A stretch of DNA of 64,000 bases from IMG/VR virus record IMGVR_UViG_3300032093_014924; one strand, 5' to 3'. This document shows positions 1,115 through 43,924 of the stretch, piece after piece. The translations under genes were made by a program, and so were the position numbers. Position 1 is the stretch's first letter; each line of letters opens with the position of its first letter. The DNA is from a virus. Its lineage: Duplodnaviria; Heunggongvirae; Uroviricota; Caudoviricetes. The notes beneath the pieces are model-generated. The model saw nothing but the letters and a program-made list of their open reading frames with translations. It did no database searches and was not told the DNA's origin.

Positions 1115-1632
1115 CTTAAAATAACATTTATATTAAAATCTTTTATATTACCATTGATAATGTTTTCTTTCCCCCAAGCCTCAAACTTAGGAATGTGTTC
1201 AAGCCTGTCATCCCACATCTCAACATACTCAACATTTTCGTATTTCTTAATTAACTTATCCAAAATACTTAATTTAAATTTATCTGTACTACCACCATCA
1301 TTATAGTAATATTCATCAAAATGTAAATCATGTTTATCCAGAATCTTTTCAACATCACCAGACAACTTTTTAATCCTACCAGTCAGCAACACTACCAATA
1401 TTTTATCATTACCATAGTTCTCTTTGTAATCATCCACGACTTTTTTGTTAACATCAATATCAAATATTTCATCGTCAAGTGATTCTTTTCGACCCCACCA
1501 ACCACTATGTGGCCAATCTTTACCAGTTTTGTTTTTATACTCAATTTTACCATCTTCAGGTAATGGAGTATACGCAATGGTTTGGTCAAAATCAAAAACA
1601 GCAATCTTTTTTATATTTTCTACTTTCTTCAT
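1111..1632 (-). CDS. HAD-superfamily hydrolase (phosphatase/nucleotidase-like)
   Basis: N-terminal VFDFDQTIAY = HAD motif I DxDxT. ATGA start overlaps the downstream gene. Confidence 0.5.
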   Translation of the reverse strand: MKKVENIKKIAVFDFDQTIAYTPLPEDGKIEYKNKTGKDWPHSGWWGRKESLDDEIFDIDVNKKVVDDYKENYGNDKILVVLLTGRIKKLSGDVEKILDKHDLHFDEYYYNDGGSTDKFKLSILDKLIKKYENVEYVEMWDDRLEHIPKFEAWGKENIINGNIKDFNINVILS

Positions 1633-6003: not shown

Positions 6004-6429
6004 TTAAATTAATTCTTTAATTACACTACTTACTAAATTATTATCAAAGTTTTTACCTTTATTCTCCTTATTGAATTTACCAATTAGGAAACCAGAATTT
6101 TTATTATCCCCAGATTGTATATAATCACTAATTATAGACCTAATTTCATTTTCTGTCATTGGTTTAGGTAAATAATCTTGTAAATAACTTAATTCCGTTT
6201 CATCATCAGATGACGATACATTTATTTTCTTTTTGTTTTCTATTGTCTCTTTAAGGTTTTTCTCAATAATCTTTAAAACCTTTAAAACATTTTCATCTGT
6301 TGATTCGATTAACTTTTTTTCTTGTGTTTCAATAGATGCTTTTAACAAACCTAAAAAGTTTTTCTTACCCATGTTTTTTTCTTTAAACGCTTGGATAAAA
6401 TCTTTACTGATTCTTTCTTTTATTAACAT
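6004..6429 (-). CDS. GatB/YqeY-like domain protein (tentative)
   Basis: 141-aa helical protein whose pattern resembles YqeY/GatB C-terminal domains. Weak. Confidence 0.35.
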   Translation of the reverse strand: MLIKERISKDFIQAFKEKNMGKKNFLGLLKASIETQEKKLIESTDENVLKVLKIIEKNLKETIENKKKINVSSSDDETELSYLQDYLPKPMTENEIRSIISDYIQSGDNKNSGFLIGKFNKENKGKNFDNNLVSSVIKELI

Positions 6430-14716: not shown

Positions 14717-15553
14717 TTAGGACTTATATTTCCAAATAAATCCTTTGTAATTTTTATATTTACCACTCGCTGCGTGGTTAATATTTGTTCGATTAAATCC
14801 TAATTTATCTTCAACTTCTTTAGAAGAAACCCACTCTTTAATAAAAGTTCCTTCTAAATCATATTGTAAGATATTTTTTGATTTTCTTCTCCTTTTTGTA
14901 ATATTTAAAATATTAGCAATTGCTTTTGTCGAACTATTGTATATTTTAATTATTTCTTTAACTGTTAATCCTTCTTTATAATAAAGATTTATAATATTTT
15001 CTTCGTCTTTTTCAGATAAGTTATATGATTTTATTAAATGTTTATAATCATCATATAAAACTCCTTGACTTGATAAATATTCATTTATCCAATGAGTTCC
15101 AGATTTTATCTTCCATAAAACCTTTAAATCTACTGTACTAAAAATTTTTTGGATTTCAGCAGTAGTTTTTCCAGAAATATATAAATCCCAAATTTTTAAA
15201 CAGTCTTCTAAAGAGGTTTTAGCTACTTGTATTTTAGTTTCTAATGATACTATTCTTGGTAACTCTTCTGTATTAGTTAAGTTGCAATTTAAACCTTTAT
15301 CTTTATTTAAAACATCATAGTAATCTTGCCAGTACCTTTCTCTTTTATTTAGTAAATTAATAGAACATTCTTCAACTATTTCAAATTTGTGGGTTTCCCA
15401 TCCGTATTTTAATACAGAATAATACAATCTTCTTTGTTTAGGTTCATTATATTTTTTGTATGTTTTATATCTTTTTGAGATGTTCTTACTTTGTCCGATA
15501 TAAATTTTACCAGAAGGTGAAGTGATTTTGTATATTCCACAAATTTTATCCAT
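14717..15553 (-). CDS. GIY-YIG homing endonuclease (I-TevI-like, free-standing)
   Basis: N-terminal GIYKITSPSGKIYIGQSKNISKR...YGWETHKFEI...ERYW = GIY-YIG catalytic module, followed by a C-terminal basic DNA-binding region. Canonical SD AAGGAGG 7 nt before the ATG, unlike the other genes. Confidence 0.8.
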   Translation of the reverse strand: MDKICGIYKITSPSGKIYIGQSKNISKRYKTYKKYNEPKQRRLYYSVLKYGWETHKFEIVEECSINLLNKRERYWQDYYDVLNKDKGLNCNLTNTEELPRIVSLETKIQVAKTSLEDCLKIWDLYISGKTTAEIQKIFSTVDLKVLWKIKSGTHWINEYLSSQGVLYDDYKHLIKSYNLSEKDEENIINLYYKEGLTVKEIIKIYNSSTKAIANILNITKRRRKSKNILQYDLEGTFIKEWVSSKEVEDKLGFNRTNINHAASGKYKNYKGFIWKYKS

Positions 15554-19432: not shown

Positions 19433-19578
19433 CAGTCAGGACAGGATTCGAACCTGTATGTAAACCTTTTATCAACTTACCTTTACCAAAGCGTTTCTGC
19501 GCAACCTACTTTGGATTTATGTTGGTAATTTACTCGTAAGTATAATTGCGTAGCGTCTACCAATTTCGCCACCTGACT
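19433..19578 (-). tRNA. long tRNA-like gene, type-II (Leu-like) acceptor/D/T arms with a roughly 60-nt extra insertion
   Basis: Minus strand reads AGTCAGG-TG-GCGA-AATTGGTAGA-CGC ... ACAGG-TTCGAAT-CCTGT-CCTGACT-G. The perfect 7-bp acceptor stem, canonical D and T arms and a GCGCAGAAACGC variable-arm-like hairpin support a tRNA. Total length is about 146 nt. Confidence 0.5.
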
Positions 19579-21811: not shown

Positions 21812-22135
21812 ATGGGATACATTTATTTAATTCTTGAAGTCGATGCTTTTGGTAACGAAAGATGCAAAATAGGTTTTACAAAAAACAATCCAGAAAAAAG
21901 AGTTAAATCTTTGCAAACTGGTAATTCAAATAATATATCATTATTGAAAACATTCGAAACTAAAAATTATAAACTTCTTGAAAAATGGTTACATGGAAAA
22001 TTCTATAGCCAAAAAACTGAAGCTAATAACGAATGGTTCCAATTAACTAATGAAGAAATTAATAATTTCACCATAACCTGTAAAGAATATGATGAAATTA
22101 TTAATTCATATAACGAAAAAGTTAATTTAATTTAA
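21812..22135 (+). CDS. T5orf172 / GIY-YIG-like DNA-binding domain protein
   Basis: GYIYLILEV...CKIGFTKNNPEKRVKSLQTGN matches the T5orf172 pattern GYVYxL...KIGxT...R...L.TG. Plus strand. Confidence 0.5.
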   Translation: MGYIYLILEVDAFGNERCKIGFTKNNPEKRVKSLQTGNSNNISLLKTFETKNYKLLEKWLHGKFYSQKTEANNEWFQLTNEEINNFTITCKEYDEIINSYNEKVNLI

Positions 22136-22177
22136 TTTTTTTTAATGTTATCACTATTTATATTAAAAAAAATATAA

Positions 22178-22324
22178 ATGGGAAAACAAATTAAATCTTC
22201 AGGTTCTTCATCATTATTAACCAAACCAAGGGTTCGCAGAAAAGGAATTCACGCTAAAAGCAAAGCAAGTAGAGGCAAAAAAACTAAAAATTATTTAAAA
22301 AGATATCGAGGCCAAGGCAAATAA
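22178..22324 (+). CDS. small highly basic protein (manual call, 48 aa)
   Basis: MGKQIKSSGSSSLLTKPRVRRKGIHAKSKASRGKKTKNYLKRYRGQGK has an Arg/Lys-rich composition like nucleic-acid-binding or ribosomal-type small proteins. Confidence 0.3.
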   Translation: MGKQIKSSGSSSLLTKPRVRRKGIHAKSKASRGKKTKNYLKRYRGQGK

Positions 22325-22546
22325 TTAAAGATTCGATATATCTTTTAATATGTTTTGATTGTTTTTAATGAAACCATAAAACATCTGTTGCATCAATGGT
22401 GGTATTAAATTACCATCAACATACACAACATAATTTAATACGCCAATCTCTTGACCTTTCTTTAAAGTTATTTCATTAGTTAATGAAACATCTTCTGTTA
22501 ATTTGTACCTTACATTATTTATTTCCATATTATTTCTTAGCATCAT
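22325..22546 (-). CDS. hypothetical protein
   Basis: 73-aa ORF. Confidence 0.3.
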   Translation of the reverse strand: MMLRNNMEINNVRYKLTEDVSLTNEITLKKGQEIGVLNYVVYVDGNLIPPLMQQMFYGFIKNNQNILKDISNL

Positions 22547-23801
22547 ATTCTGGGTTCATATATTTACAAGATAAGTCATTACTAAAATGTGTCCTAATAA
22601 CAACACCTTCAATAACTCTACCTTGTTCTTTTTCTTTTGCAATAATTGAATCACAAAACTGACATAATTCTTCATATGAAGATGGTTTAACCAATTCTGG
22701 TTTTGTGTATTCCAAACCTAAAGCGACACATACAGTTTCAAGATTAAATTCACTTGAATAGTTTAATCTTTTTGAAAAACCTTCAGATAAATTATCAATA
22801 CCAAACATTCTAAGTGTTTGTTTTTTATTAGAATCTGGATTATATTTGTTACCAGAACCCTTTAACCCCTGACCATAAATTTCACCTCTAAATGCTAATT
22901 CCAAACCATGTGTTTTACAATATTCTAATCCTTTATCAATTAAACCACTTGAATACGCTAAATCAACCCAAGAATCTTTTACATCAACAAAAATTGGGGT
23001 TAATGAATCAAGTTCTTCATTTGTTCTGAAATCATTTAACGCATCACAATACCAACCCTTTTCTTTCGTTTCTGGGTTAATATATTTATGATAATTGTTG
23101 TTATTAGCATCAAAATAATTTGTAATCGCTTTTTGTTCAAGTTTTTTCTCTAAACTTCTTGAACACACACCAACCTTATATTCACCATCAATAAGTTTAA
23201 AATATGTCGTGTGTGATGAACCATCATGTTTAATTGTAACACCAAACACTGTGTTACCATCACATAACTTCATAACCCTTGATTTAAGGTTTGAATAATT
23301 TTCTTCATCCGTTTTATATAAGAAAGATGGGAAATCACCAGCAATCAAACCAGAACCAGCTGTTTCAGGTTCTTCATATTTTGTAATACCAAGAATTTCT
23401 GTTATATCATCAGTATCTGAATCTTTACCAATAAATGAATCAACTTCACTCTTTGGTAATAAAACACCAAAAGAATAGATAGGGTCTGTTGATTCAGCAA
23501 ATGAGAAATTAAATTTAATTGCCCTAACCCTATTGTTTTTACCTAACCTGCTTTTCTTAGGGTCATTATCTGGCATTGTAAAACTATTGAATAATCCAAT
23601 GTCTGATAAGCAATAATCAGGTTGAATATAACAGGCTTTTGACCCTATTTCATATAACCCTTTTTGTGCAATGACATTGTACCCACATTCATCACCATTC
23701 TTAAACTTAAAGTTGATTACTTGGATACTATTAGCCTCTTCACCATTCTTGTATACAGGAATGATTTTATTTACTTCAACAATTTCAACTGGTTTTATCA
23801 T
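22530..23801 (-). CDS. ATP-dependent nucleic-acid ligase (KxDG nucleotidyltransferase; RNA-ligase-like)
   Basis: GVTIKHDGSSHTTYF = motif I KxDG of the covalent nucleotidyltransferase superfamily. 423 aa. Confidence 0.5.
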   Translation of the reverse strand: MIKPVEIVEVNKIIPVYKNGEEANSIQVINFKFKNGDECGYNVIAQKGLYEIGSKACYIQPDYCLSDIGLFNSFTMPDNDPKKSRLGKNNRVRAIKFNFSFAESTDPIYSFGVLLPKSEVDSFIGKDSDTDDITEILGITKYEEPETAGSGLIAGDFPSFLYKTDEENYSNLKSRVMKLCDGNTVFGVTIKHDGSSHTTYFKLIDGEYKVGVCSRSLEKKLEQKAITNYFDANNNNYHKYINPETKEKGWYCDALNDFRTNEELDSLTPIFVDVKDSWVDLAYSSGLIDKGLEYCKTHGLELAFRGEIYGQGLKGSGNKYNPDSNKKQTLRMFGIDNLSEGFSKRLNYSSEFNLETVCVALGLEYTKPELVKPSSYEELCQFCDSIIAKEKEQGRVIEGVVIRTHFSNDLSCKYMNPEYDAKK

Positions 23802-23947
23802 ATTTCTTTTTTTTTTACAAAGTTACTAAAAAGTTTTTTAATGTGCAAATATTTTTTTTATTATAGGATTAAAATTAAGATATATTTATTTCTTCTATCC
23901 AAAAATTTTCATTTGGAAAATCTCTTTTATATTGAATGCGTAAAACC

Positions 23948-25299
23948 CATAAGTCTTTAGCTTATGTGATATAAGCACTACAAAAATACAAATAAATAAA
24001 CAAATAAACAAATAAATATTTTTTTTTCTTAAAATATGTCTTTTTTAATATTATCATATATTTATCATATATAGAGTTAATCTGATAAATAATGTTAAAA
24101 TCATATAAATATAAACTTAAACCAACTAATGAACAAATTGTTTTATTGAATAAACACTTTGGTTCAATTAGGTTTATATATAATTATTTTTTAAATGAAA
24201 GAAAACATGAATATGAAACAAACAAAAACTCAATTAATTATTATGATAACGCTAAATCATTAACTGAATTAAAAAAACAAGATAATTATTCATGGTTAAA
24301 AGAAATTAATTCACAATCATTACAGGATTCATTAAAAAATTTAGAAACAGCTTATAAGAATTTTTTTAGATTCAAAAAAGGTTTTCCTAAATTTAAATCT
24401 AAACACGATAAAAATAGTTTTACAATACCTCAATTTGTTAAATTAAATAAAAATGAATTATCTATACCTAAATTTAAAGACCCTATTAAAGTCATTATAG
24501 ATAGAAAATTTAATGGTTTAATTAAACAATGTACTATTTCAAAAACACCAACAAATGAATATTTTGTATCTATTTTGGTTGAAACTGAACATAATAAATT
24601 ACCAAAAACTAACAAATCTGTTGGTATTGATTTAGGTATTAAAGAGTTTGTTATAACATCTGATGGTTATAAATATAAAAATAATAGATACACAAAAACA
24701 TACGCTAAAAAACTTAAAGAACATCAACAACATTTAAGCAGAAAAATAAAAGGTAGTAACAGATATAATAAACAAAAATTAAAAGTGGCCACTATTCATA
24801 AGAAGATAACCAATTCTAGAATAGATAATCTACATAAAATATCCACAGATTTAATTAAAAAATATGATTTAATTGTATTGGAAGATTTAAATATTAAGGG
24901 TATGGTTAAAAATCATAAATTATCTAAACATATTTTAGATGTTTCATGGGGAAAATTTGTAACAATGTTACGTTATAAATCTGAATGGAATGATAAAAAA
25001 ATAGTTAACATAGATAGGTTTTTTCCTAGTAGTAAAACATGTAATTGTTGTGGTTATATTAATCAAAATTTAAAATTAAATATTAGAGAATGGGTTTGCC
25101 CATCATGTAATACTAAATTAGATAGAGATTTAAACGCAAGCATAAATATCCTTAAAGAAGGAAATAAGATATTATCGTCAGGAACTGACGATTACAGACG
25201 TGGAGATGAAATAAGACCAACATCCGTTGGCACAATCGGTGAAACGTCTAAAATTCTTAACAATATTGTTAAGAAACCCATTGGTCTTTAGCCAATGGG
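23948..25299 (+). mobile_element. IS200/IS605-family (IS1341-like) TnpB-only insertion element
   Basis: The only large plus-strand gene in its neighbourhood. Flanked by two related hairpins with an identical TCTTTAG loop: CATAAG-TCTTTAG-CTTATG at 23948-23966 and CCCATTGG-TCTTTAG-CCAATGGG at 25277-25299. Confidence 0.6.
24092..25291 (+). CDS. tnpB: TnpB (OrfB_IS605) RNA-guided endonuclease-family transposase accessory protein
   Basis: N-terminal YKYKLKPTNEQ, central RuvC-like region, and C-terminal CNCCGY...CPSCNTKLDRDLNASINI zinc ribbon + RuvC-III signature. Confidence 0.85.
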   Translation: MLKSYKYKLKPTNEQIVLLNKHFGSIRFIYNYFLNERKHEYETNKNSINYYDNAKSLTELKKQDNYSWLKEINSQSLQDSLKNLETAYKNFFRFKKGFPKFKSKHDKNSFTIPQFVKLNKNELSIPKFKDPIKVIIDRKFNGLIKQCTISKTPTNEYFVSILVETEHNKLPKTNKSVGIDLGIKEFVITSDGYKYKNNRYTKTYAKKLKEHQQHLSRKIKGSNRYNKQKLKVATIHKKITNSRIDNLHKISTDLIKKYDLIVLEDLNIKGMVKNHKLSKHILDVSWGKFVTMLRYKSEWNDKKIVNIDRFFPSSKTCNCCGYINQNLKLNIREWVCPSCNTKLDRDLNASINILKEGNKILSSGTDDYRRGDEIRPTSVGTIGETSKILNNIVKKPIGL

Positions 25300-25533
25300 T
25301 AGTTCATCTATAGTGTTTATTAAAGCCATATGTGGAATATGTCTACCAATCAACACAGACCATATTAATTCACGTTTTTGATTTAAATCCCAAACAAAAT
25401 CACGCTGTAAGTTCTTACCTCTTGTTTCTAAGAAAACATCCCAATCAATATTTAATTGTTTAAAGTACTTTACGCTTGAGCAAGCTTCTTCAACTTTTAG
25501 ACCAATATTTCTAAGTTCTTTTATAGTTTTCAT
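25288..25533 (-). CDS. hypothetical protein
   Basis: 81-aa ORF. Its 3' end runs into the right-end hairpin of the IS. Confidence 0.35.
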   Translation of the reverse strand: MKTIKELRNIGLKVEEACSSVKYFKQLNIDWDVFLETRGKNLQRDFVWDLNQKRELIWSVLIGRHIPHMALINTIDELPIG

Positions 25534-26654
25534 TTTTTTAAATGTTCGTATAACCTCTTGTTATCAAAGTCTTTAAGGTATTCTTCTGGTGATGGTGTTT
25601 TACCGTCAATCAAAGAGAAAAACATATTTGAAAATAACATTAAATTATTCTCTGAACAAACTTTAAATACATTTGTGGCGTAATTTTTACGTTCTTCTTT
25701 TGTGTTGTTCTTAGGTTTAAATTCATATAAAACATACCAATAATGATTTAACGCACGTATTAACCCATAATACTTTTCTCTTAGTTCAAGTATCTCATTT
25801 TCACGTTCTTTGAATGTTGATATGAATTCTTCAACTTCATTATTCTTTATTATCCCCAATATATTATAAAAAGATAATTTATCTTTTAAATGGTGAACCA
25901 AAACATATTCAGGATTCTTTAATTTAACTCTGTTAAAATCATTATCAACAATAACATACCCCTCTTCTGAAAATGGCATATTTTCAAAAGTCTTAACCAA
26001 AGAATCTATGTTCTTATTTAGGTCATATTCAGTCACCACAGGGATATTTATTTGTTTTGATACTTCCATTACATCATTGTAAGATAATTCGTTTAAGGTC
26101 TTTAAATCCCTTATTGTTAATAATGTTAGTGAAGATTCAGAATGTGGTTTAACAACAATATTATAAGGTGTCATTAATTCAAAAACATAACTAAAACCTT
26201 TTGTTAATTTATTTTCAGTTAAACCATATTTTGAAGCTGTATTCCAAAACAGTTGATTAAATGTTAAATCTAACATTCCATTAACATTCCCTTCACCTTC
26301 AGCAGTTCCTGTTGTTGCAGCAAACCACTTATCTTTATTCCAATCGTAGTGTAAATTAATTAAAGAACCATCACACTTCTCAAGGATTCTTGCGGTATTC
26401 CAATTAATTGTATGAGCATTAGTTTCACTATGATTAAAGAATTTTTTAAAAGCCATACCAATAACTTTCCATGTGTCTAATTCGAGAATTAATCCACGAC
26501 ATTCTTGAACTTCTTCCAAAGCCATTATTACTGGTGATGATAATTGGTCATACTTTAATATGACTTTATCATAGTATAACTTATGTTTTAACTCTAAATC
26601 AGATACGGTTTTTTCTAACCCATCTCTATTTAACTTTTCAACTATTTTTAACAT
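25530..26654 (-). CDS. rnlA: RNA ligase 1 family (T4 RnlA-like)
   Basis: RILEKCDGSLINL = KxDGSL motif I, as in T4 Rnl1 (KEDGSL). 374 aa. Confidence 0.6.
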   Translation of the reverse strand: MLKIVEKLNRDGLEKTVSDLELKHKLYYDKVILKYDQLSSPVIMALEEVQECRGLILELDTWKVIGMAFKKFFNHSETNAHTINWNTARILEKCDGSLINLHYDWNKDKWFAATTGTAEGEGNVNGMLDLTFNQLFWNTASKYGLTENKLTKGFSYVFELMTPYNIVVKPHSESSLTLLTIRDLKTLNELSYNDVMEVSKQINIPVVTEYDLNKNIDSLVKTFENMPFSEEGYVIVDNDFNRVKLKNPEYVLVHHLKDKLSFYNILGIIKNNEVEEFISTFKERENEILELREKYYGLIRALNHYWYVLYEFKPKNNTKEERKNYATNVFKVCSENNLMLFSNMFFSLIDGKTPSPEEYLKDFDNKRLYEHLKK

Positions 26655-26660
26655 TTTATT

Positions 26661-26966
26661 TTAATTATCTTTAAAGTTTTGTTCTTCGCCATCTAAATTA
26701 TTAAAATATTTTAGTATCTCTGAAATTCTTATGTTTTTTTCTTCAAGGTCATCCATAATCCTTTTTGCAGCATACATTGATGAAATTAACCCATATTCTT
26801 CGACATCTTTTTCATCTAACATAACACCAGCGATAAATATTAATAAACTACCAGCTTTATTAACACAATAATCACCAGTTTCATGGCTTTCTTTACATAA
26901 AGAAGTTCCCATTTCAAATAATTTTGAGCTTATTTCGGCTCTACGTTCTAACATATTATTTTCCAT
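26661..26966 (-). CDS. hypothetical protein
   Basis: 101-aa ORF with the promoter motif abutting the ATG. Confidence 0.4.
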   Translation of the reverse strand: MENNMLERRAEISSKLFEMGTSLCKESHETGDYCVNKAGSLLIFIAGVMLDEKDVEEYGLISSMYAAKRIMDDLEEKNIRISEILKYFNNLDGEEQNFKDN

Positions 26967-26988
26967 ACTACAAAGGTACTAATAATTT
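26967..26988 (-). promoter_or_regulatory. conserved upstream motif instance
   Basis: actacaaaggtactaataattt abutting the ATG of 26661-26966. Confidence 0.5.
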
Positions 26989-27004
26989 TATTAATAATAC
27001 AAAA

Positions 27005-27931
27005 TTATTTTTTCAAAATGTTTTTAACCACGCCAGTTAATTTAATTGGTTTAATTTTTTCCCAATCAGTTATATCATTACTCATTTTAGGTGAACCATC
27101 TGGACTAATAGCTATAGTTATATGTGGTATATTTTTTTTTGATTCATATCCACTTACTTCTATGGCAATTGCTTTATCTGATATACCTAATTTATTACCT
27201 TGTAATATCACTTCTTTATCCAAATCTTTTTCATTCTCAACACCTTTTCCAAATTGAATTGTCATATGATGTGCATAAACTTTCCAATCTTCAGGTATGA
27301 TATCTGAAAACATATTAATCAATTTATTATGTGATTCTTCATCCAATACAACTGCTGAATATAACACATCATCTTTTTTACCCATATCTTTGCTATTAAT
27401 CACTTTTTCAATTGTTATTGGGTTATGTGTCTTATATTTATCAATCATTGATTTAATCTTATCTAAAGGCACATTATGTGTATTTCTTTTGGCCAATTCT
27501 TCTGCTGTTAATCCACCAGTACCGATATTAATAAATTTTATGTTCTTATCATCGTAACCCATTTCTAATGCAGCCATAACATATTGTTTTGGTTCACTTG
27601 GGCTTAAATTGGTATTATCAATTATAACTGGTGTAATACCATCTTTCATAGATTTTATAGCGTTTTTAAGATTTTGTTTATGCATATTACTTAATGGTCC
27701 AAAATCTTTATTTGCCATCATATTATTAAAGAATTCGTTATAATCACCAGTAGCTTCAATTAAATCATCTGTTGAATGGATAATACCATTACCAACTATA
27801 GATTTAGCTTTTGTGCTTTTACCGCTACCAGGTATACCAACCATTATAATCAATTCTTGATTATCTCTGGTTATTGGAACATTTATTATATTTGTTCCGT
27901 TCAATTGTTCTAATATATTTCTTATTTTCAT
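27005..27931 (-). CDS. P-loop kinase, polynucleotide-kinase-like
   Basis: IIMVGIPGSGKSTKA Walker A near the N-terminus, as in T4 Pnk. No HAD motif is visible in the C-terminal part. Confidence 0.45.
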   Translation of the reverse strand: MKIRNILEQLNGTNIINVPITRDNQELIIMVGIPGSGKSTKAKSIVGNGIIHSTDDLIEATGDYNEFFNNMMANKDFGPLSNMHKQNLKNAIKSMKDGITPVIIDNTNLSPSEPKQYVMAALEMGYDDKNIKFINIGTGGLTAEELAKRNTHNVPLDKIKSMIDKYKTHNPITIEKVINSKDMGKKDDVLYSAVVLDEESHNKLINMFSDIIPEDWKVYAHHMTIQFGKGVENEKDLDKEVILQGNKLGISDKAIAIEVSGYESKKNIPHITIAISPDGSPKMSNDITDWEKIKPIKLTGVVKNILKK

Positions 27932-27948
27932 ATGTTTTTAAAATAAAA

Positions 27949-28030
27949 CGAATGTTCTCAGGGACATCAGGTAGTTAACCTTAATAACAGATGGTTGCAA
28001 CCACTATTAAATGAGTTTGAGAACATTCAT
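27949..28030 (-). ncRNA. structured 5' leader / small RNA candidate downstream of a promoter motif and upstream of the kinase gene
   Basis: Promoter motif at 28031-28052. Long-range stem GAATGTTCTC (27950-27959) with GAGAACATTC (28019-28028). Perfect palindrome GGTTGCAACC at 27993-28002. 7-codon uORF MNVLKLI. Confidence 0.3.
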
Positions 28031-28052
28031 TATTACAAATATACTATTAATA
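28031..28052 (-). promoter_or_regulatory. conserved upstream motif instance driving a structured leader
   Basis: tattacaaatatactattaata. Followed by a uORF/hairpin instead of a long gene. Confidence 0.5.
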
Positions 28053-28077
28053 ATATAATTAAACAAAAAAATATTTT

Positions 28078-28175
28078 AGTTGCGTGATATTTTTATCCTA
28101 AAATACTGTTGTAATTAAATACATAGCAATTAGTTATAAAAATGTATTGCGTATAACCTATTGTTATGTGTAATA
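28078..28175. repeat. about 100-bp dispersed repeat, copy 1
   Basis: Near-identical to 46158-46258 (gtgatatttttat.ctaaaatactgt.gtaattaaatacata.caattagttataaaaatgtattgcgtata.cct.ttgttatgtg). Confidence 0.7.
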
Positions 28176-28180
28176 ATTTT

Positions 28181-28693
28181 TTACCCACCCACTTTTGATA
28201 TTCTTATAGATAAGGTATTTACTTTTAATCCTAAAACATCTTCAATTTTATCAAAGGTTTTGGATTCTATTATCTTTTTATTTGAATTTTTAGGTGATTT
28301 ACCACCAGCAATAACACCTTCTTCATCATGTAATAAATCAGCAAGTTCATCATAATTAGGATTATCTAATTCATATGAAATGCTAACTGGTTTTGAATTT
28401 CCATATTTATATCCATAAACCTCCATAACATAATTAACACCACTTATCAACCACTCTTTAATTTCGAATTGGTTCTCACCAAAAAATCTTTGAAAATGAA
28501 GTATAATGTTGTTTGGTGTGCCTTGTAATTGAAAATTAGGATTTTCTCCGTTATAATCATCATATGAAATCCATTTGAATATATCTATAAGTTCTTCTCT
28601 ATCTTTTAAAATATCTAATTTTAGATTCTTACGACTCTCATTCAAATTAAACCTTTTGAATGTATCTATCAATCTTCTCATTTCTTTACTCAT
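28181..28693 (-). CDS. hypothetical protein
   Basis: 170-aa ORF. Confidence 0.4.
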   Translation of the reverse strand: MSKEMRRLIDTFKRFNLNESRKNLKLDILKDREELIDIFKWISYDDYNGENPNFQLQGTPNNIILHFQRFFGENQFEIKEWLISGVNYVMEVYGYKYGNSKPVSISYELDNPNYDELADLLHDEEGVIAGGKSPKNSNKKIIESKTFDKIEDVLGLKVNTLSIRISKVGG

Positions 28694-28742
28694 AGTTTTA
28701 TCTTTATATATAAATAGTTAAAAACTAAAATCCAACGCACTT

Positions 28743-29228
28743 TTATTTTATTAATTCAAATTCACCTTTATTATTTCTTTTCCACAACTTGAAATTTTTA
28801 GAATCACGATATTCTGGTTTCAAAACACCAACATTTGAACTATCATTCAAGTTATCATAATTTTTACGATTCCAATTTGGTTGGAAAGCACTATCTGGTA
28901 ATTCGGTTGTAATCAAATATGGATGTTGTTCAAATCCGTGAAATATTGACCCCTTTTTAAAGTTTGGTGAATGTTGATTAACAAATGTAGCAAAAGGACC
29001 TATCTTTTCTATATTAAACTTACTTAAATCTTCTTTTTCACCTATAAAGTCACCACCACTTTTTAAATGATTTATTAATTCATCAGAAGAGGTAGCATGT
29101 GTCCAAATATTAGGTTTTTGTTTAAAAATTTCATTCCTTTTAAATCTATCAAATATGCCTTCATTAAACTCTTGTTGTTCAATAAATTCTCGTATCTTAG
29201 TTTTAATCACTTGTTTAAAATCTTTCAT
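28743..29228 (-). CDS. hypothetical protein
   Basis: 161-aa ORF. Confidence 0.4.
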   Translation of the reverse strand: MKDFKQVIKTKIREFIEQQEFNEGIFDRFKRNEIFKQKPNIWTHATSSDELINHLKSGGDFIGEKEDLSKFNIEKIGPFATFVNQHSPNFKKGSIFHGFEQHPYLITTELPDSAFQPNWNRKNYDNLNDSSNVGVLKPEYRDSKNFKLWKRNNKGEFELIK

Positions 29229-29262
29229 CTTTTATTTTATATATAGATATTCAGAATTAAAA

Positions 29263-30849
29263 TTAACCAAAAAAATTAGTAATGTTTTTTAATTTAACCT
29301 TCGTATCATCTTTAATTGTTATTTCATTTTCCCAAGGATGCAAAACAAATGTTCTCATAGTCTCATAATAATCTATATTTGATGTTGGTGTTTCAACTTC
29401 TATCAAATAAACATCATCTTCTTCCAAATTTTTATCTAGCTTTCTCGCATTTTGGTATAAATAATCTAACATTTCTTCATGAAAATCTTCTGTACTTAAG
29501 ACATAATGATGTCCAAAATTATTCTTATTTAACTTATCTGGGTTTTTTATATAAACAACCCTATACAATATTATTGATGATTGTTTTTGAATTGTTTTCA
29601 AATCATATATTTTATCTTTTATGAATTTTTTTGGGTTATCTACTTTGTCACCAATAATATCTAATAACACATCTAATCTATGACCAAAAATATTTGTGTT
29701 TAATATATCAATAATTGGATTGCTATTAAATAAGACATATGATTCAAATTTTTCACCATCTTTTTGTTCAATTATTATTAAACCATCATATCCTCTACTT
29801 TGAAAAGTTTTTTTAATATCACCATCAAAATCTAATCTAATTAATTCCCATAAAGAATTATTTTGATTCTTAGTTAAAAGTTTTGATGGAAAATATTGTT
29901 TTGTCTCTTTATAGAATGTTTTACTATCAATTTTATTTGTACCTAGTGACCTTAAATCTAATAATTTAGATGTATCTATCTTTAATCCTGTAACGCCATC
30001 TTCATTTCCTTTAGCATACATTAACGCATATCTAAAAATTGGTGTTAAATAAAAATAATTGTTATTATCAAAAGTTATGTTATCTAATTTATAACCAGAT
30101 TTATTACCGTGATATAATGTTTTTAATTCTTCAGTTAAAATTATGTTTTCATTTAAATTTTGTTTTGTTTTTATTTTGACTTTTGATGGGTCTAAAACCA
30201 TTCTAACTGTTGATTTAATAGTACCACCATGATATGAATCCAAAACACCAATAACATCTATACAATCAAAATTTAAAATGTTCCCTATTGCTCCTATAAC
30301 ATCTGTTTTAATTCCTTTATCATTATAATAATAATTAAACATTGATATTAATTCATCAATTCTTTCTTCAGATATACCAGCATTAATAAAACCATTTTTA
30401 ACTTTATCTAAACTAATATAACTAAATCTATCACCAATTGCTATTATCTTAACTATTTTATCACAATCAACATCAACTTCATACACTTTTTCAATAGCGT
30501 TTTGATAATCAAAAGCTCTTTTAGCATCAGCATATGTTTTAGCAACAGAATATTTGTCAGTTATGAATAATGGTTTGTTATACGAATAATAATCTTTAAA
30601 ATTAGAAACTTTATTTAATAAACTAAAATATAATTCTTCATCACCTGAAATTTTAGCTTTATTCATTTTTTCTTGTAATTTATCAAGAGCTTTAGGGTTA
30701 TTAACATATTCTACTCTAATAGTTTTATTAGTAAAACCACCTTCTTTTTCTATTTCTCTAGAATCATAAGTACCATGAAACCAACCTTCTAATAATATAT
30801 TAGTGTTCAAATATTTCCTTAATGATTCTTTAATATATGTTTTATTCAT
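29263..30849 (-). CDS. hypothetical protein (528 aa)
   Basis: Long uninterrupted ORF with no recognised motif. Confidence 0.45.
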   Translation of the reverse strand: MNKTYIKESLRKYLNTNILLEGWFHGTYDSREIEKEGGFTNKTIRVEYVNNPKALDKLQEKMNKAKISGDEELYFSLLNKVSNFKDYYSYNKPLFITDKYSVAKTYADAKRAFDYQNAIEKVYEVDVDCDKIVKIIAIGDRFSYISLDKVKNGFINAGISEERIDELISMFNYYYNDKGIKTDVIGAIGNILNFDCIDVIGVLDSYHGGTIKSTVRMVLDPSKVKIKTKQNLNENIILTEELKTLYHGNKSGYKLDNITFDNNNYFYLTPIFRYALMYAKGNEDGVTGLKIDTSKLLDLRSLGTNKIDSKTFYKETKQYFPSKLLTKNQNNSLWELIRLDFDGDIKKTFQSRGYDGLIIIEQKDGEKFESYVLFNSNPIIDILNTNIFGHRLDVLLDIIGDKVDNPKKFIKDKIYDLKTIQKQSSIILYRVVYIKNPDKLNKNNFGHHYVLSTEDFHEEMLDYLYQNARKLDKNLEEDDVYLIEVETPTSNIDYYETMRTFVLHPWENEITIKDDTKVKLKNITNFFG

Positions 30850-34247: not shown

Positions 34248-34706
34248 TTATTCTTTTTTTATCAAAGTTAATGAAAGATAAATTAAATCTATTGTTTTAA
34301 CTCTAGTTATAACATCTTTTCTATTAGTGCGTCTATATAACTCATATGGGTCTTTATTACTACCAATTTCTTTACCTTTAATTTTTTCGTCTATGAAATG
34401 TTGTAACTTTTCTTTTTCGACTATTATCCAATAATCTTCAGTTTCAAACGCAAAATAATCAGCCTCACCAAATAACCATGATTTCTCACCTCTAACATTT
34501 TTAAGTTCAACCCAATGAAAATTTTCATTATATCTAGGGTCATATCTAGCCCCTTTTTTCATTGATTTAACATCTATCTTGGCACTTATTGTTAAATCAA
34601 AATGTAAATACATATCATCTTCTCTAGATGATGGTGTTACATTAGTGAAAAGTTTCGCAAACTCACTTTCCTTTAACTTGCCAATTATGAATTCTTTGTT
34701 ATTCAT
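34248..34706 (-). CDS. hypothetical protein
   Basis: 152-aa ORF. Confidence 0.4.
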   Translation of the reverse strand: MNNKEFIIGKLKESEFAKLFTNVTPSSREDDMYLHFDLTISAKIDVKSMKKGARYDPRYNENFHWVELKNVRGEKSWLFGEADYFAFETEDYWIIVEKEKLQHFIDEKIKGKEIGSNKDPYELYRRTNRKDVITRVKTIDLIYLSLTLIKKE

Positions 34707-36268: not shown

Positions 36269-37183
36269 TTATTTAATTGTTTTTTTAAAGTTATCTGTTT
36301 CTAACGATGTTATTTTATTACCAAGTTCTTGACTAGGTTTAAGATTAAATTTATCCATTACTTCTTGTGAATTAACAGACAATTCAAAATCTATAAAAGC
36401 ATCAACTAACTTTTTATCTAAATTATTTATTTGACCGAATTTTTTTATTTGTTCATCATTCAATGTTATATTTTTTTGCATCTTTTTTAATGCTACGGCT
36501 GTATCAATACTTATATTTAAAAAACTAAGTAAAAATTGAATGTTTCTTATCTCATCAATAGTGTATCTTAATTCATTTAATTTGTTACCAATGTTTTTAG
36601 GGTTATTTAATTTTAATAAAGTTGATATTGTTATGATATAATCATCTGTTAAGTTTTTGAAATTCTTATTAATATTAAGTTTAGGAAAAATCCAATCAAA
36701 TAAATTATATCTATCTATTAAAGATAGAAAGAAAGAAACATTTTTAGCTGATTTAATTCCTTTAATAAATTCATCTTTTACTCTCTCAGCAGATATACCT
36801 TCTAAACTAGCATCTTTTTGTAATGCTTCATCTGTTTGTTGGTCTATATCACTATCTAATCTGGCTGAGAATCTTAGAACTCTTAAAATCCTAAGTCTAT
36901 CTTCATTGAATCTATCTTCTGGTTTACCAACGGTTCTAATCACACCATTTTTTATATCTTCAATACCACCAACAAGGTCAACAATTTCTTTATTTTTAAT
37001 ATCGTAAAATAAAGCATTTATTGTTATATCTCTTCTTAGCACATCTTGATATATATCTGTGAATTCGACTGAATCTGGTCTTCTTTTATCAGCTAAAGTT
37101 TTTTCATAATCTTCAAATTCTTTTTTAAAGAATTCTTTAGCTATTTGTTCCCAATTTTCCATTTTAATTATTTTAATTTCCAT
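36269..37183 (-). CDS. CCA-adding tRNA nucleotidyltransferase, C-terminal portion (neck/body), separate ORF
   Basis: ADKRRPDSVEFTDIYQDVLRRDITINALFYD = the conserved RRD(F/I)TINA motif that follows the head domain. Begins with its own ATG overlapping the end of the GIY-YIG gene. Confidence 0.7.
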   Translation of the reverse strand: MEIKIIKMENWEQIAKEFFKKEFEDYEKTLADKRRPDSVEFTDIYQDVLRRDITINALFYDIKNKEIVDLVGGIEDIKNGVIRTVGKPEDRFNEDRLRILRVLRFSARLDSDIDQQTDEALQKDASLEGISAERVKDEFIKGIKSAKNVSFFLSLIDRYNLFDWIFPKLNINKNFKNLTDDYIITISTLLKLNNPKNIGNKLNELRYTIDEIRNIQFLLSFLNISIDTAVALKKMQKNITLNDEQIKKFGQINNLDKKLVDAFIDFELSVNSQEVMDKFNLKPSQELGNKITSLETDNFKKTIK

Positions 37184-37875
37184 TTATAACCACCACACTT
37201 ATTTCTATTACCATTTATTACCGACCAAATATTGCCTTGACTCAACCCTAATTCTTTTGCTGCTGCTGTTGCACTAACCCATTCTTTAATTAATTCACTA
37301 TCTTTAGATAATTGTAATACTGGTGTTGCGTTCCAAGACAAAGTACCTTTTTTGGTTTCTGATATTTGTTTTTTAGTCTCTTCGCTGTGTTTATTACCAG
37401 TATTTCTACCAGGTTTACCAATTAATGATTGACTTATTTTTTCTCTTGTTATATTACTAACCTCCCTATTTTTATTGTTTTGACTGATTTTATTCCTATA
37501 CTCTAACGACCTTATGTGACCAGAAACACCATCGCCTCCATTGGTAAGGTTGGTTAATGGACCATTTTTTAAATCATTCCTACCAATAACTAATATTAAT
37601 TTTTTTTCTAACTCGAAAGCATCAACTTCAAATATATTTTCACTAATTTTTAAAATTATTGGTTTTAAACCAATATTTATTATTTTATTAATTTTTCTAA
37701 TTTTATATGTGTTATTATCACACTTCATCCTATTAGGGTTTAAGTGTTCTAAGCATCTTTTGTAACATCCCTTTCCAACATAAAATGGTTCATATTCAAA
37801 TTTATAATCACCATATGTAAATTCACCTTTTTTTCTTGGGTCTAGGTAAACATAGACATAATATTTTGATTCCAT
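37168..37875 (-). CDS. GIY-YIG homing endonuclease inserted within the CCA-enzyme gene
   Basis: YVYVYLDPRKKGEF...FYVGKGCYKRCLEHLN = GIY-YIG module, with C-terminal NUMOD-like basic repeats. Located between the two halves of the CCA enzyme. Confidence 0.75.
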   Translation of the reverse strand: MESKYYVYVYLDPRKKGEFTYGDYKFEYEPFYVGKGCYKRCLEHLNPNRMKCDNNTYKIRKINKIINIGLKPIILKISENIFEVDAFELEKKLILVIGRNDLKNGPLTNLTNGGDGVSGHIRSLEYRNKISQNNKNREVSNITREKISQSLIGKPGRNTGNKHSEETKKQISETKKGTLSWNATPVLQLSKDSELIKEWVSATAAAKELGLSQGNIWSVINGNRNKCGGYKWKLK

Positions 37876-37919
37876 GACATTCTTTTTATTATAAATATCA
37901 TGGATTAATCTAAAAGTCG

Positions 37920-39485
37920 CTATTTCATTAATTTAGTTAAAAATTTTTCGTAACTACCATTATTTAAACGTTTTAAATAATCTTTAAACCCTTCTAAATC
38001 ATAACCTTTATATTGGTCTATTCTGAATGTGGCTATTTCATATTCATCACTATCTGTTATAACATTAATGACACCAAATGCTTTTCCTGTTGCTATTGTT
38101 TTATAACCGTTTTCTTGTAATATGTTTTCAATATCATCTGGTTTAGCATTTGTTGCTAAATCATAATCTTTTGGTTCTTTATTTAGTAAAACATCCCTTA
38201 CTGAACCACCAACAAGATATAAATCATAACCATTCTTAACAAAAATATCTTTAATATCTATTATGTCCTTTGGTAAGTTAATATCATATTTAATTCTTAT
38301 TTCAGATGAAGTATTTAATTTATTTTCGTTTTCGGTAAAAAATTGTTTATATTCATCATCTTCTTTCACGTTATTTAATAAACGTTCTTCTTCATCATTT
38401 AATGGTCTATTTATGTTTTTTAAAATCAATTCTTGATGTTTTTCATCATACTTCCAAAAATCTTCTAAAATATCTTCTAATATAGTTACATCATTTACTT
38501 TAATGTTTTCATCATAAATTAATTTAATATAACCATCATCAATCATTTTTTTAACCATTTTATAATGTGGTAATTTTTCTAATAAACCATTCTTAAATTT
38601 AATTGGTAATGAATTATAATAAACTTTTTTTAAGTTTTCATCTAACTCATCTAATTGATAAGGTTCAAAATAATATTCAAAATTTTTTATATAAATTATT
38701 TTTTCATTATTTTTTAATTTATTAAAAAAATCAATACTTAATTTATCACCAGCTAAAGCATCTGAACGCATATTTGGGAAATTAGTTATCACATCACGTT
38801 TTATTTTACAAAATAGTTCTGGGTTTTTAACTTCTACTGGATTAGACGATAGTTTAGATAAATCATATATAACAGACCCGTGTAATGTATTATCATACCC
38901 ATCTATACCGCTAACATTAACACCATTAAAACCATTGTACTCCATTATTCTTGTTGACATGGATGCTAAATTGGTTTTGTTCTTCATGTCATTTGCGGCT
39001 TCTTTAACCATATTTATATATTCACGATATTTTGGAATATTTAAACCTAGGTATTGTGCATTATTTATTATTTTTAAATAAATAATTTTGAATTTGTTAT
39101 CCATTTCAAATTTGCTATCATAAACTCTAACAACTAAATAAAAACTTTCATTTATTAGTTTTAATGTTTTAAATAACATTTCAGCATGGTCTGGTGATTT
39201 AACCCTAAATAAATTTTTATAAATATCAAAATCAACACGATAAATATTATCTTTTATTTTAGTTAATTCTTTTTTTGAGTTATCGGAATCATCAAAATTT
39301 TCACAACTATAAGTAGAAAAATAAAGACCAGAACCAAAATGCCCAGTTCCACGACCTTGCATACGAAATAAATTATCTGAACCATATGGTCTTATATTTT
39401 CTACATTTTCTATATCACCTTTATGGTAATTAAATTCCGTTTCGTTTAATAAGTTTCTTAATTTGAATTTAATATAGTTTTTCAT
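37920..39485 (-). CDS. Unknown about 400-aa N-terminal domain fused to the CCA-adding enzyme head domain (N-terminal half of the split nucleotidyltransferase)
   Basis: C-terminal 90 aa YDLYLVGGSVRDVLLNKEPKDYDLATNAKPDD...GKAFGVINV...EYEIATFRIDQY = class-II polymerase-beta head domain (GGxVRD, DxD, ATFR). The ORF stops immediately after. Confidence 0.7.
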   Translation of the reverse strand: MKNYIKFKLRNLLNETEFNYHKGDIENVENIRPYGSDNLFRMQGRGTGHFGSGLYFSTYSCENFDDSDNSKKELTKIKDNIYRVDFDIYKNLFRVKSPDHAEMLFKTLKLINESFYLVVRVYDSKFEMDNKFKIIYLKIINNAQYLGLNIPKYREYINMVKEAANDMKNKTNLASMSTRIMEYNGFNGVNVSGIDGYDNTLHGSVIYDLSKLSSNPVEVKNPELFCKIKRDVITNFPNMRSDALAGDKLSIDFFNKLKNNEKIIYIKNFEYYFEPYQLDELDENLKKVYYNSLPIKFKNGLLEKLPHYKMVKKMIDDGYIKLIYDENIKVNDVTILEDILEDFWKYDEKHQELILKNINRPLNDEEERLLNNVKEDDEYKQFFTENENKLNTSSEIRIKYDINLPKDIIDIKDIFVKNGYDLYLVGGSVRDVLLNKEPKDYDLATNAKPDDIENILQENGYKTIATGKAFGVINVITDSDEYEIATFRIDQYKGYDLEGFKDYLKRLNNGSYEKFLTKLMK

Positions 39486-41386: not shown

Positions 41387-41489
41387 GTTGTTAGGACAGG
41401 ATTCGAACCTGTACGCAGTATCTTAATTACAGGCTCTTTTCACGATACTGCCGAGCCATGCGTGCGTCTACCAATTCCGCCACCTAACT
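41387..41489 (-). tRNA. long type-II tRNA-like gene (Leu-like), about 103 nt
   Basis: AGTTAGG-TG-GCGG-AATTGGTAGA-CGC ... ACAGG-TTCGAAT-CCTGT-CCTAACA-A. The middle 50 nt contains a 9-bp stem CGCAGTATC/GATACTGCG. Confidence 0.45.
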
Positions 41490-42964: not shown

Positions 42965-43317
42965 TTGTAAGGTTTTTAGTGGAGCGAGTCGGAGTTGCAC
43001 CAACGTGTTGGTTATTCTTCAATACCTTTCTACATGTTTATAATGGTTTTCTAACCATTCAAAATACATCAAATTTGTTAAGTTCTCTGATTAGAAACTA
43101 ATGGACTACCATTATGTTGTAGAAAATACTACAATTAAGTAAGTTATTACTATCAGCGATATCAGGCTACCGCAAGCTCTCCAGCGAAGCTACATGTAAC
43201 TTCGTTAAGGAAATTTTCAGAAACAACTAAATCGTTGCCATTTGTTTGTTTTGATAGGGTATTTAAGTGTTTCCATCTAACACTACATGCTTAATACTTA
43301 CGACTATAACCAGTCGA
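42965..43317 (-). ncRNA. ssrA: tmRNA (SsrA)
   Basis: Minus-strand 5' end GGGGCGAUAUUAGAAUCGACUGG... is near-identical in pattern to the bacterial SsrA 5' end GGGGCUGAUUCUGGAUUCGACGGG. The 3' end ...GGUGCAACUCCGACUCGCUCCA is the T-arm-like + acceptor strand pairing with GGGGCGA. A candidate internal tag ORF ...FAGELAVA-UGA ends with a typical hydrophobic (A/L/V)A tag. Promoter motif about 14-19 nt upstream. Confidence 0.8.
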
Positions 43318-43330
43318 TTCTAATATCGCC

Positions 43331-43350
43331 CCATTGTTTTAATAATTATT
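43331..43350 (-). promoter_or_regulatory. conserved upstream motif instance upstream of tmRNA
   Basis: ttattacaaatatactaaaa about 14 nt 5' of the GGGG start of ssrA. Confidence 0.5.
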
Positions 43351-43399: not shown

Positions 43400-43924
43400 T
43401 TATGTGTATTTATCAATAATAGTTTTAAACATGTAATAATATGTGCTAATAGTTGTTTTAGCACCGTGAGTACTAACATTATTAAATTCATTTTTAATAA
43501 CATCAGAAATATTGTTTATGGTTGATGCTTTTTCTATAAATGAAAAACCCTCCCTTTCTTGAAATATGATTAACGCTTTTCTAACGCTGTACGTGCCGTA
43601 AAAAGAAAACGGCATATAGTTTGATTTTATCCAATCCCACATGTCATTAGGGTTGTTTGTGTTTGGTGCTTCTTGATGACAATCTTTACATAGAAGAACA
43701 TAGTTGTCAGGTGAATCACTACCACCTAAACTATGTGGAACTATATGACATCTTTCTAATGAAGGGGTTTTATGTGATTTTCTAAATCTGTCATCACCAC
43801 AATTCCAACAGTGTGTGTGTGCATCGGCCCAATCGAAATTTAATTCTAGTTCACTTATATTACTATTTTTTATCCAGTAATCAGCAATATGTTTTATAGT
43901 TGTTTTACAATATCTTGTCGCCAT
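43400..43924 (-). CDS. HNH homing endonuclease
   Basis: HCWNCGDD...CHIVPHSLGGSDSPDNYVLLCKDCHQ = HNH motif with zinc-binding cysteines. Confidence 0.75.
   Translation of the reverse strand: MATRYCKTTIKHIADYWIKNSNISELELNFDWADAHTHCWNCGDDRFRKSHKTPSLERCHIVPHSLGGSDSPDNYVLLCKDCHQEAPNTNNPNDMWDWIKSNYMPFSFYGTYSVRKALIIFQEREGFSFIEKASTINNISDVIKNEFNNVSTHGAKTTISTYYYMFKTIIDKYT

Follow-up and report, generated by a model that had tools for sequence, protein, structure and literature searches.

A predicted heal-and-seal module for RNA breaks and a passenger TnpB element in an uncultivated large phage

To our knowledge, phage RNA repair has been worked out in biochemical detail almost only for T4, whose Pnkp fully removes the 3′ phosphate. 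The described systems closest to the locus studied here are the T4 set of Pnkp and the RNA ligase Rnl1, together with Rnl2, and the fungal and plant tRNA ligase Trl1, in which ligase, kinase and cyclic phosphodiesterase (CPD) domains follow each other in the order LIG-KIN-CPD, together with vertebrate CNPase (a kinase-like and a 2H domain). Kits with PNK, 2H enzymes and ATP-dependent ligases have also been predicted in jumbo phages by comparative genomics, and that source mentions phage 2H enzymes and PNK-HAD fusions (PMC7824862). The general kind of kit is therefore already known. A term search of PMC7824862 did not find the wording 'kinase-2H', and a literature search for a phage kinase-CPDase returned nothing specific. 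Here we describe positions 22530 to 27931 of a 64,000-nt stretch of Caudoviricetes DNA (IMG/VR record IMGVR_UViG_3300032093_014924, in its full length called the window). This segment encodes a fused kinase-CPD protein, a conserved small protein, two RNA ligases and a TnpB element. Together with the genes that regularly accompany it, the fused kinase-CPD gene seems to be a distinct, uncharacterised variant of the known repair kits. Taken as a whole, we consider the segment likely to be a phage 'heal and seal' module for RNA breaks that carries a TnpB element as a passenger. Its main features are the following.

27005–27931, minus strand: two-domain end-healing protein of 308 amino acids, with a predicted T4-Pnk-like kinase and a predicted 2H cyclic phosphodiesterase
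26661–26966, minus strand: conserved small protein of 101 amino acids (83–140 in relatives), between the kinase-CPD and Rnl1 genes
25530–26654, minus strand: Rnl1-type ATP-dependent RNA ligase of 374 amino acids, KCDGSL, with motif I nucleophile K93
23930–25306, plus strand: IS200/IS605-family TnpB-only element of about 1.38 kb, its ends set by comparison with related copies
22530–23801, minus strand: RNA ligase of the Rnl5 family (DraRnl/NgrRnl type), 423 amino acids, KHDGSS, with nucleophile K191

The two KxDG ligases, the P-loop kinase and the TnpB gene that the original prediction had placed here were all recovered, each with a homology far beyond chance. The same prediction had equated the genes with the T4 counter-defence set. 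There are likenesses: the kinase domain has the T4 Pnk fold with a P-loop, an Asp general base and a lid Arg, and the Rnl1-type ligase (11 of 12 checked residues) is accompanied by a second ligase of the nick-sealing type, all of them phage-encoded. The catalytic residues and the conserved gene order support an end-healing and sealing kit, but not identity with T4. In the window 3′ healing would fall to a 2H phosphodiesterase instead of a DxDxT (HAD) phosphatase, the second ligase is of the Rnl5 and not the Rnl2 type, and an extra conserved small protein is present. Because the 2H phosphodiesterase replaces the DxDxT phosphatase, the product expected by analogy would be 2′-PO4/3′-OH, compared to 2′-OH/3′-OH in T4. 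The locus has its architecture in common with the KIN-CPD part of Trl1 and with CNPase, where a 2H domain bearing two HxT motifs likewise comes after a domain of the kinase or kinase-like type. It is nevertheless not a member of the Trl1 (Rnl6) type, because its ligase is encoded by a separate gene and is Rnl1-type, lacking the RxxR and the motif-I Asn.

The kinase-CPD protein and its conserved neighbourhood

The N-terminal part of the 308-residue protein (residues ~20–170) reads as a T4-Pnk-like 5′-OH polynucleotide kinase domain. Residues 26–168 align to the T4 Pnk kinase domain with an E-value of 7.5e-7, and K38, S39, D55 and R149, which correspond to T4 K15, S16, D35 and R126, are invariant across 43 relatives. 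The C-terminal part (residues ~176–308, positions 27008–27406) contains the motifs HHMTI (H222, T224) and PHITI (H270, T272), and both HxT motifs are invariant in the 43 relatives as well as in stand-alone homologues. The best Pfam match to this segment is tRNA_lig_CPD, the fungal tRNA-ligase CPD model, which was found in 39 of the 43 relatives (best E-value 3e-7) and is precomputed for many database homologues. An AlphaFold2 model had a confidence (predicted local distance difference test, pLDDT) of 89, and its top Foldseek match was PDB 6u05, 'Crystal Structure of Fungal RNA Kinase'. Since the alignment spans 438 columns of a target of 413 residues, the model suggests that both domains of the protein are matched.

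No DxDxT motif was found in the C-terminal 130 residues, and this segment folds as a 2H domain in the model. Lacking a DxDxT phosphatase, the protein falls outside the T4-type Pnkp enzymes. The Pnk-like kinase of the original prediction thus holds for the N-terminal domain but not for the whole protein, whose second domain had gone unnoted. The characterised 2H RNA cyclic phosphodiesterases ThpR (PMC4201822) and Trl1 CPD (PMC1920235) yield a 2′-phosphate product, and by analogy the window domain would most likely produce 3′-OH/2′-PO4 ends. Instead of healing RNA ends, a 2H domain might degrade host immune signalling nucleotides, as the phage 2H protein Acb1 does with the signals of the cyclic-oligonucleotide-based antiphage signalling system (CBASS), with the kinase acting on small molecules. 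For the protein described here we consider this quite improbable. By itself, the 2H-like domain of ~120 residues is more widespread than the fusion. It recurs at 42–51% identity in proteins of 1100–2300 residues and in stand-alone proteins of ~130 residues (P0157, P0161, P0164, P0166, P0192 and others), and is therefore mobile.

To look at the gene neighbourhood we examined 80 IMG/VR loci carrying kinase-CPD relatives at 49–63% identity. The order kinase-CPD, small protein, Rnl1 is conserved and recurs in uncultivated viral contigs. A Rnl1 homologue was located downstream on the same strand in 70 of these loci, and in 62 of the 69 loci having at least 4 kb of downstream sequence, with a median offset of +1.5 kb. 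In 61 of the 80 loci a homologue of the small protein, about 25–40% identical, is encoded between these two genes and on their strand, the median distance from the end of the kinase gene being +622 bp. More distant contexts have the same gene order, at times with a Nudix gene inserted.

The small protein is part of the module. Its alignment has a conserved N-terminal core of ~75 residues (…ERRLELSxKFLEMGxAL…SMFSAKK…), while the tail is variable and often acidic. Searches against Pfam, NCBIfam and PDB sequences gave no significant match, with noise only in the PDB profile search, and a word-index homologue search retrieved only three near-identical proteins. The identical protein is encoded on contigs as long as 293 kb. 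A promoter scan was uninformative, with fewer sites than in shuffled sequence. The Rnl5-type ligase, on the other hand, was found in none of the 80 loci. Because of this it is a lineage-specific addition that lies outside the conserved module.

Outside viral contigs the complete kinase-CPD architecture is hardly ever met with. Full-length relatives were found in 271 stretches in IMG/VR and in ~970 clusters of the metagenome protein set. Among 185,579 species genomes we found a single copy, on a contig binned with Methanobacterium in a metagenome-assembled genome (L116 in our numbering of contigs; PLXT01000115.1, 170,662 bp), which may be a mis-binned viral contig. When 50,697 phage records were searched by tblastn, only the kinase half was matched, at no more than 33% identity, without any full-length match.

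Two ligases and the proposed repair pathway

The original prediction had named a RnlA-like ligase with the motif KCDGSL. In agreement with this, the 374-residue protein matches the full Pfam model RNA_lig_T4_1 (PF09511; E 1.9e-17, 64.3 bits against a gathering score of 28.3), and its residues 45–336 match T4 Rnl1 structures (phmmer, E 9e-14). Of 12 T4 Rnl1 residues checked, 11 are identical (R54, K75, F77, K99, D101, G102, E159, E227, G228, K240 and K242). The window residues K93, D95 and G96 (motif I), E159 (III), E231 and G232 (IV) and K244 and K246 (V) correspond to the adenylyltransferase motifs of T4, and R53, K71 and F73 to the ATP-contacting residues R54, K75 and F77 of its N-terminal sub-domain. 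T4 Rnl1 owes its specificity for tRNA to its C-terminal domain; the alignment of the window protein to the T4 enzyme extends to residue 336 of 374.

Attachment of tail fibres is a second activity of T4 gp63, and the PHROGs match of the Rnl1-like protein, phrog_562, is called 'RNA ligase and tail fiber protein attachment catalyst' (E 6e-42). It could thus be mainly a virion assembly factor with the kinase as an incidental neighbour. However, all adenylyltransferase residues are retained, and in the 62 of 69 loci given above the gene is tied to healing enzymes and not to structural genes, which makes this reading extremely improbable. In a relative at 50–54% identity, represented by the contigs L007 (11378–13306) and L008 (6394–8322), the Rnl1 gene is broken directly after motif I. 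Query residues 1–98 and 97–372 match separate open reading frames (ORFs) in the same frame, the second of which has a weak Intein_splicing match, and a mobile insertion occupies the ligase active site in this relative.

The second KxDG ligase, with KHDGSS, was also correctly predicted, and it is of the Rnl5 type. It consists of an N-terminal OB-like domain fused to a nucleotidyltransferase domain, without an appended C-terminal domain. The motif residues are K191 (KHDGSS), E307 (RGEIYG), E398 (EGVVIR) and K413, and K191, D193, G194, S195, S196, R305, G306, E307, E398, G399 and K413 do not vary among the 41 relatives that were aligned. The protein matches the Naegleria RNA ligase with an E-value of 6e-15, and K191 pairs with position 171 of the NgrRnl chain (KLDGSS). 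Judged from its sequence, it is a divergent member of the Rnl5 family. Compared to the Rnl5 enzymes of Naegleria gruberi and Deinococcus radiodurans (TIGR02306), it is phage-encoded and ~80 residues longer, with an insertion at residues ~220–295 between motifs I and III. The original prediction was to fall if the ligases lacked motifs III–V, and it stands on this point because the motif residues are retained in both the Rnl1- and the Rnl5-type enzyme.

Three genes elsewhere in the window have to be introduced before the pathway is considered.

1111–1632, minus strand: HAD_SAK_1 phosphatase of 173 amino acids (Pfam HAD_SAK_1, E 9.4e-16), 21 kb from the module
49919–51349: DUF2828/DUF7788 'RNA-binding protein' (phrog_850)
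51866–52399: Nudix gene

From the domain identities, catalytic residues, gene order and viral restriction described above, we infer the substrates, product chemistry, order of steps and purpose of the module as follows. A ribonuclease cut, with a host anticodon nuclease acting on tRNA as the model case, would leave a 2′,3′-cyclic phosphate and a 5′-OH. The C-terminal 2H domain would open the cyclic phosphate, most likely to 3′-OH/2′-PO4, and the N-terminal kinase domain of the same protein would phosphorylate the 5′-OH. The Rnl1-type ligase, encoded two genes downstream, would then seal the ends, and the 2′-phosphate would either have been taken off beforehand by the HAD_SAK phosphatase of the phage or stay in the sealed RNA. 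The small protein, encoded between the healing and the sealing genes, probably acts together with them. The Rnl5-type ligase would be an extra enzyme of this lineage that seals nicks in duplex RNA, by analogy to NgrRnl, which its PDB entry calls a nick-sealing RNA ligase. For the fate of the 2′-phosphate there are three possibilities: removal by HAD_SAK, help from the small protein, or retention at the junction. The HAD_SAK_1 phosphatase is a candidate remover of a 2′- or 3′-phosphate remaining after ring opening. In relatives, a HAD_SAK homologue is located between the kinase-CPD and Rnl1 genes (L073) or ~1.8 kb downstream of kinase-CPD (L099).

Several observations weigh against this pathway. 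In the kinase, T4 K15, S16, D35 and R126 have counterparts, but the position of T4 R38 is taken by I58, an isoleucine that is invariant in the 43 relatives. The window protein's own Pfam CPD match is below threshold (18.8 against 23 bits, E 1.3e-3), and a sequence profile of the C-terminal domain gave only noise against PDB sequences, so that the prediction of a 2H phosphoesterase rests on the motifs, the relatives and the predicted fold. In the Rnl1-type ligase, T4 K119 has no counterpart. Its score is far under the cut-off of the NCBIfam equivalog TIGR02308 (77 against 242), the match covering model positions 33–339 of 373. The enzyme also lacks the residues that Trl1 is proposed to use for a 2′-PO4 end: motif I reads KCDG and motif V is followed by NPEYVLVHHLKDK, without RxxR, whereas the site proposed for Trl1 consists of RxxR following motif V and the motif-I Asn (PMC6379707). 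In PMC1920235, PMC6379707 and PMC10946426 we found no statement on a Rnl1-type ligase sealing 2′-PO4 ends. A Pfam scan of ~60 ORFs, part of those in the window, turned up no Tpt1/KptA. The Rnl5-type ligase is likewise far below the cut-off of the NCBIfam equivalog TIGR02306 (53.5 against 151.15 bits), with residues 40–233 only being matched. Finally, hairpins inside the TnpB element are terminator-like on the minus strand, so that fewer transcripts might continue into the Rnl5 gene.

Should the enzymes function as predicted, the module would represent a third way in which nature combines healing with sealing specificities. A widespread group of uncultivated phages would then join a ligase of the T4 type to the chemistry by which RNA ends are healed in yeast tRNA splicing, which raises the question whether Rnl1 seals 2′-phosphate ends or whether HAD_SAK or the small protein bridges the step. 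The enzymes of the module are also candidates for new RNA-end tools. As for the purpose, the T4 paradigm (PMC1920235, PMC10946426) and surveys of RNA repair in jumbo phages (PMC7824862) make defence evasion the likeliest one, and a role in countering PrrC/RloC/VapC-like tRNA nucleases is plausible by analogy. A transfer-messenger RNA (tmRNA), tRNAs, a CCA-adding enzyme, IF3, YqeY, HAD_SAK, Nudix and the phrog_850 protein fit a phage that protects translation.

The three activities of Trl1 are encoded by neighbouring genes in the window, and kinase and CPD are fused in the eukaryotic order. From this one can go further and propose that the Trl1/CNPase healing unit has a viral relative in the kinase-CPD and Rnl1 neighbourhood, or even arose from it, with the 2′-phosphate retained at the junction, where it blocks re-cleavage, and the small protein as an adaptor through which the Rnl1-type ligase takes 2′-phosphate ends. 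We hold this to be unlikely. If true, the 2′-phosphate would block a transesterifying host nuclease, and the repair would immunise the RNA.

The tRNA-type genes bear on another explanation, in which the kit serves the phage's own RNA processing. It would rejoin insertion-bearing tRNA-like genes in a tRNA splicing of the yeast kind, or maintain the phage tRNAs and tmRNA. Instead of the seven tRNA genes originally predicted, we found three canonical tRNAs, two aberrant tRNA-like hits and one tmRNA. The tmRNA (42977–43332, minus strand) scored 48.5 bits against a gathering score of 47 with Rfam (E 4e-16) and was not called by ARAGORN. The aberrant hits are tRNA-Leu-like genes of 146 nt (19433–19578, minus strand) and 102 nt (41388–41489, minus strand), which scored just over the Rfam threshold (34.7 and 32.5 bits, respectively). 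Both have good acceptor, D and T arms and oversized anticodon and variable regions, and a compensatory exchange of C:G for U:A in the acceptor stem sets the two copies apart. These genes speak for own-RNA processing, as does the Trl1 (splicing) type of the healing chemistry. However, no splicing endonuclease was found, the ARAGORN intron models were mutually inconsistent for the 146-nt gene and nil for the 102-nt gene, fold z-scores were unremarkable, and the two genes are located 3 and 13 kb from the module. We therefore regard own-RNA processing as very improbable and retain the repair of nuclease-cut RNA as the preferred reading.

The TnpB element and the island between the ligase genes

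The gene cluster is interrupted by TnpB, as the original prediction stated, but the insertion lies in an island between the two ligase genes and no repair gene is broken. With every repair gene intact, the TnpB element is a passenger. Its features and those of its flanks are listed below; IS denotes the insertion sequence.

23864–23929, minus strand: accessory-island remnant, the 3′ end of a 93-residue gene, left over after a 766-bp loss by the IS left end
23925–23929: TTTTA, resembling a transposon-associated motif (TAM), immediately outside the IS left end
23946–23968: left-end hairpin of the IS, CCCATAAG-TCTTTAG-CTTATGTG
24092–25291, plus strand: tnpB (NF038281 IS200_TnpB, 438.7 bits against a cut-off of 425)
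25277–25299: right-end hairpin of the IS, CCCATTGG-TCTTTAG-CCAATGGG
25307–25322, plus strand: flank of the IS right end, TCTATAGTGTTTATTA, matching the sibling allele
25307–25533, minus strand: first 76 codons of a 172-residue DUF262/GmrSD_N-like gene, truncated by the IS

Three Pfam TnpB domains match the protein. D180 (GIDLG), E264 (LEDLN) and D346 (DRDLNA) are read from the sequence as the RuvC D-E-D triad, and C317–C320 and C336–C339 form the CxxC…CxxC arrangement of a zinc finger. Other viral contigs hold 6–11 related IS copies, and their DNA is homologous to the window from just behind TTTA up to TAGTTCA precisely, the right end terminating in …GGGTAGTTCA at 25306. Both end hairpins have the loop TCTTTAG, while the stems vary among copies with complementarity kept. 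Comparison of empty and filled sites showed that the element entered on the 3′ side of a short motif and that the target was not duplicated. No TnpA (Y1 transposase) was found between the IS ends, and because tnpB is the only gene there the element is non-autonomous. It is like other IS200/IS605 TnpB-only elements in having sub-terminal hairpins at both ends, a right end that overlaps the end of tnpB, an insertion directly 3′ of a short T-rich motif and no target duplication. It differs from them in the loss of 766 bp of flanking sequence that accompanies the insertion, and its omega-RNA and TAM are putative.

In a canonical TnpB element, the flank adjoining the right end is the omega-RNA guide segment. 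By analogy, the flank at 25307–25322 may act as a guide. The IS-free sibling allele reads TTTTA/TCTATAGTATTTATTA (the slash marks the junction), and the window flank matches it at 15 of 16 positions, with one mismatch. Because the putative guide still matches the sibling beside a TAM-like motif, TnpB-driven homing among co-infecting siblings is conceivable. When other sites resembling the putative guide were sought, allowing up to four mismatches, only AT-rich noise came up.

Among sibling phages that are 95–100% identical, the island occurs in three alleles. In the first, the Rnl5 gene follows 55 bp after Rnl1 and there is no island. In the second, Rnl1 is followed by an island with genes for the 172-residue DUF262/GmrSD_N protein and for proteins of 74 and 93 residues, sometimes with an HD gene. 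The third is the IS-bearing form of the window, which was found in at least five samples. We considered whether the IS alone causes the 1.67-kb difference from the sibling contig L001 and rejected this, the island being a second polymorphism. The last two codons are the sole difference in Rnl1 between island-bearing and island-free alleles.

The listed 81-residue ORF (25288–25533) starts with an ATG that shares bases with the stop codon of Rnl1 (ATGA), extends into the right end of the IS and has a weak GmrSD_N match. That it is a spurious antisense ORF of the IS was rejected, since the 172-residue gene genuinely begins with the first 76 codons of this ORF. This gene is intact, with precomputed Pfam GmrSD_N, at the same position in the IS-free sibling contigs L110 and L115, which are 99.5% identical to the window as far as position 25303. 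A homologue of 174 residues with 57% identity is present in L009.

At the other end, window 23934–23059 aligns to L115 3552–4425 with 95% identity, whereas L115 2786–3551 is without counterpart in the window. A 10-nt sequence, TTTTATATTG, is common to both end-points of this 766-bp deletion. Written in the orientation of the window, the sequence of the intact allele is CATTTTTA/TCTATAGTATTTATTAAAGCC. The IS right end of the window reads …GGGTAGTTCA/TCTATAGTGTTTATTAAAGCC and the left end CTCTTTTA/TATTGAATGCG, where the sibling has CTCTTTTATATTGGTTATC. The simplest history that fits these junction sequences has two steps. The element would first have entered codon 76 of the DUF262 accessory gene, on the 3′ side of TTTTA. 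A deletion of 766 bp would have followed, running from one copy of TTTTATATTG to another, of which one was native and the other had arisen at the junction. The three co-existing alleles are a natural before-and-after record of a TnpB insertion, including the TAM-like motif and the matching sibling target.

Source phage and surrounding genes

The window has a G+C content of 23–30% and nearly all ORFs are on the minus strand. It encodes sigma factors, ClpP, DnaJ, thymidine kinase, an amidase and homing endonucleases besides the tRNAs and tmRNA. Near-identical DNA is confined to metagenome assemblies, one contig (L108, JGI 3300005527) being 100% identical over 6.3 kb, and related contigs reach 220–370 kb. 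A megablast search with window 22000–28500 gave zero matches at the DNA level in the 50,697 phage records. Since its kin are found only in metagenome assemblies, related contigs have this size and deposited phage genomes hold none, the source is an uncultivated, large, jumbo-type phage.

Among the accessory genes of the original prediction, the HAD phosphatase (as HAD_SAK_1), the Nudix gene and the CCA enzyme were found again, and its putative vWA/Ro60-like protein would be the DUF2828/DUF7788 protein at 49919–51349. The CCA-adding enzyme gene is split into a 521-residue N-part (37920–39485) and a 304-residue C-part (36269–37183) by an insertion of ~928 bp (about 37094–38021), which bears a GIY-YIG/NUMOD endonuclease ORF (37168–37875). 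Rfam detected no group I intron at this insertion, and the gene is intact, with 768 residues, in the sibling contig L001.

Translation and proteostasis genes elsewhere in the window encode IF3, YqeY (GatB-like), ClpP and a full DnaJ at 1685–2182, 6004–6429, 43934–44650 and 47745–48737, respectively. Just past the Rnl5 gene we found a T5orf172/MUG113 mobile-endonuclease-type gene (21812–22135, plus strand), and more genes of this kind are GIY-YIG/NUMOD1 (14717–15553, minus strand) and HNH (43400–43924, minus strand). Several indels against sibling contigs, for example at 28000–29263, 33522–32908 and 34252–34706, reveal a mosaic population. The best match of a 536-residue protein (2391–4001, minus strand) is phrog_1745, 'DNA transfer protein', at E 2e-147, next to which it has a weaker one to metallo-phosphoesterases, and an 813-residue protein (56776–59217, minus strand) has an ArdC N-terminal domain. 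Early or anti-defence functions are possible for both.

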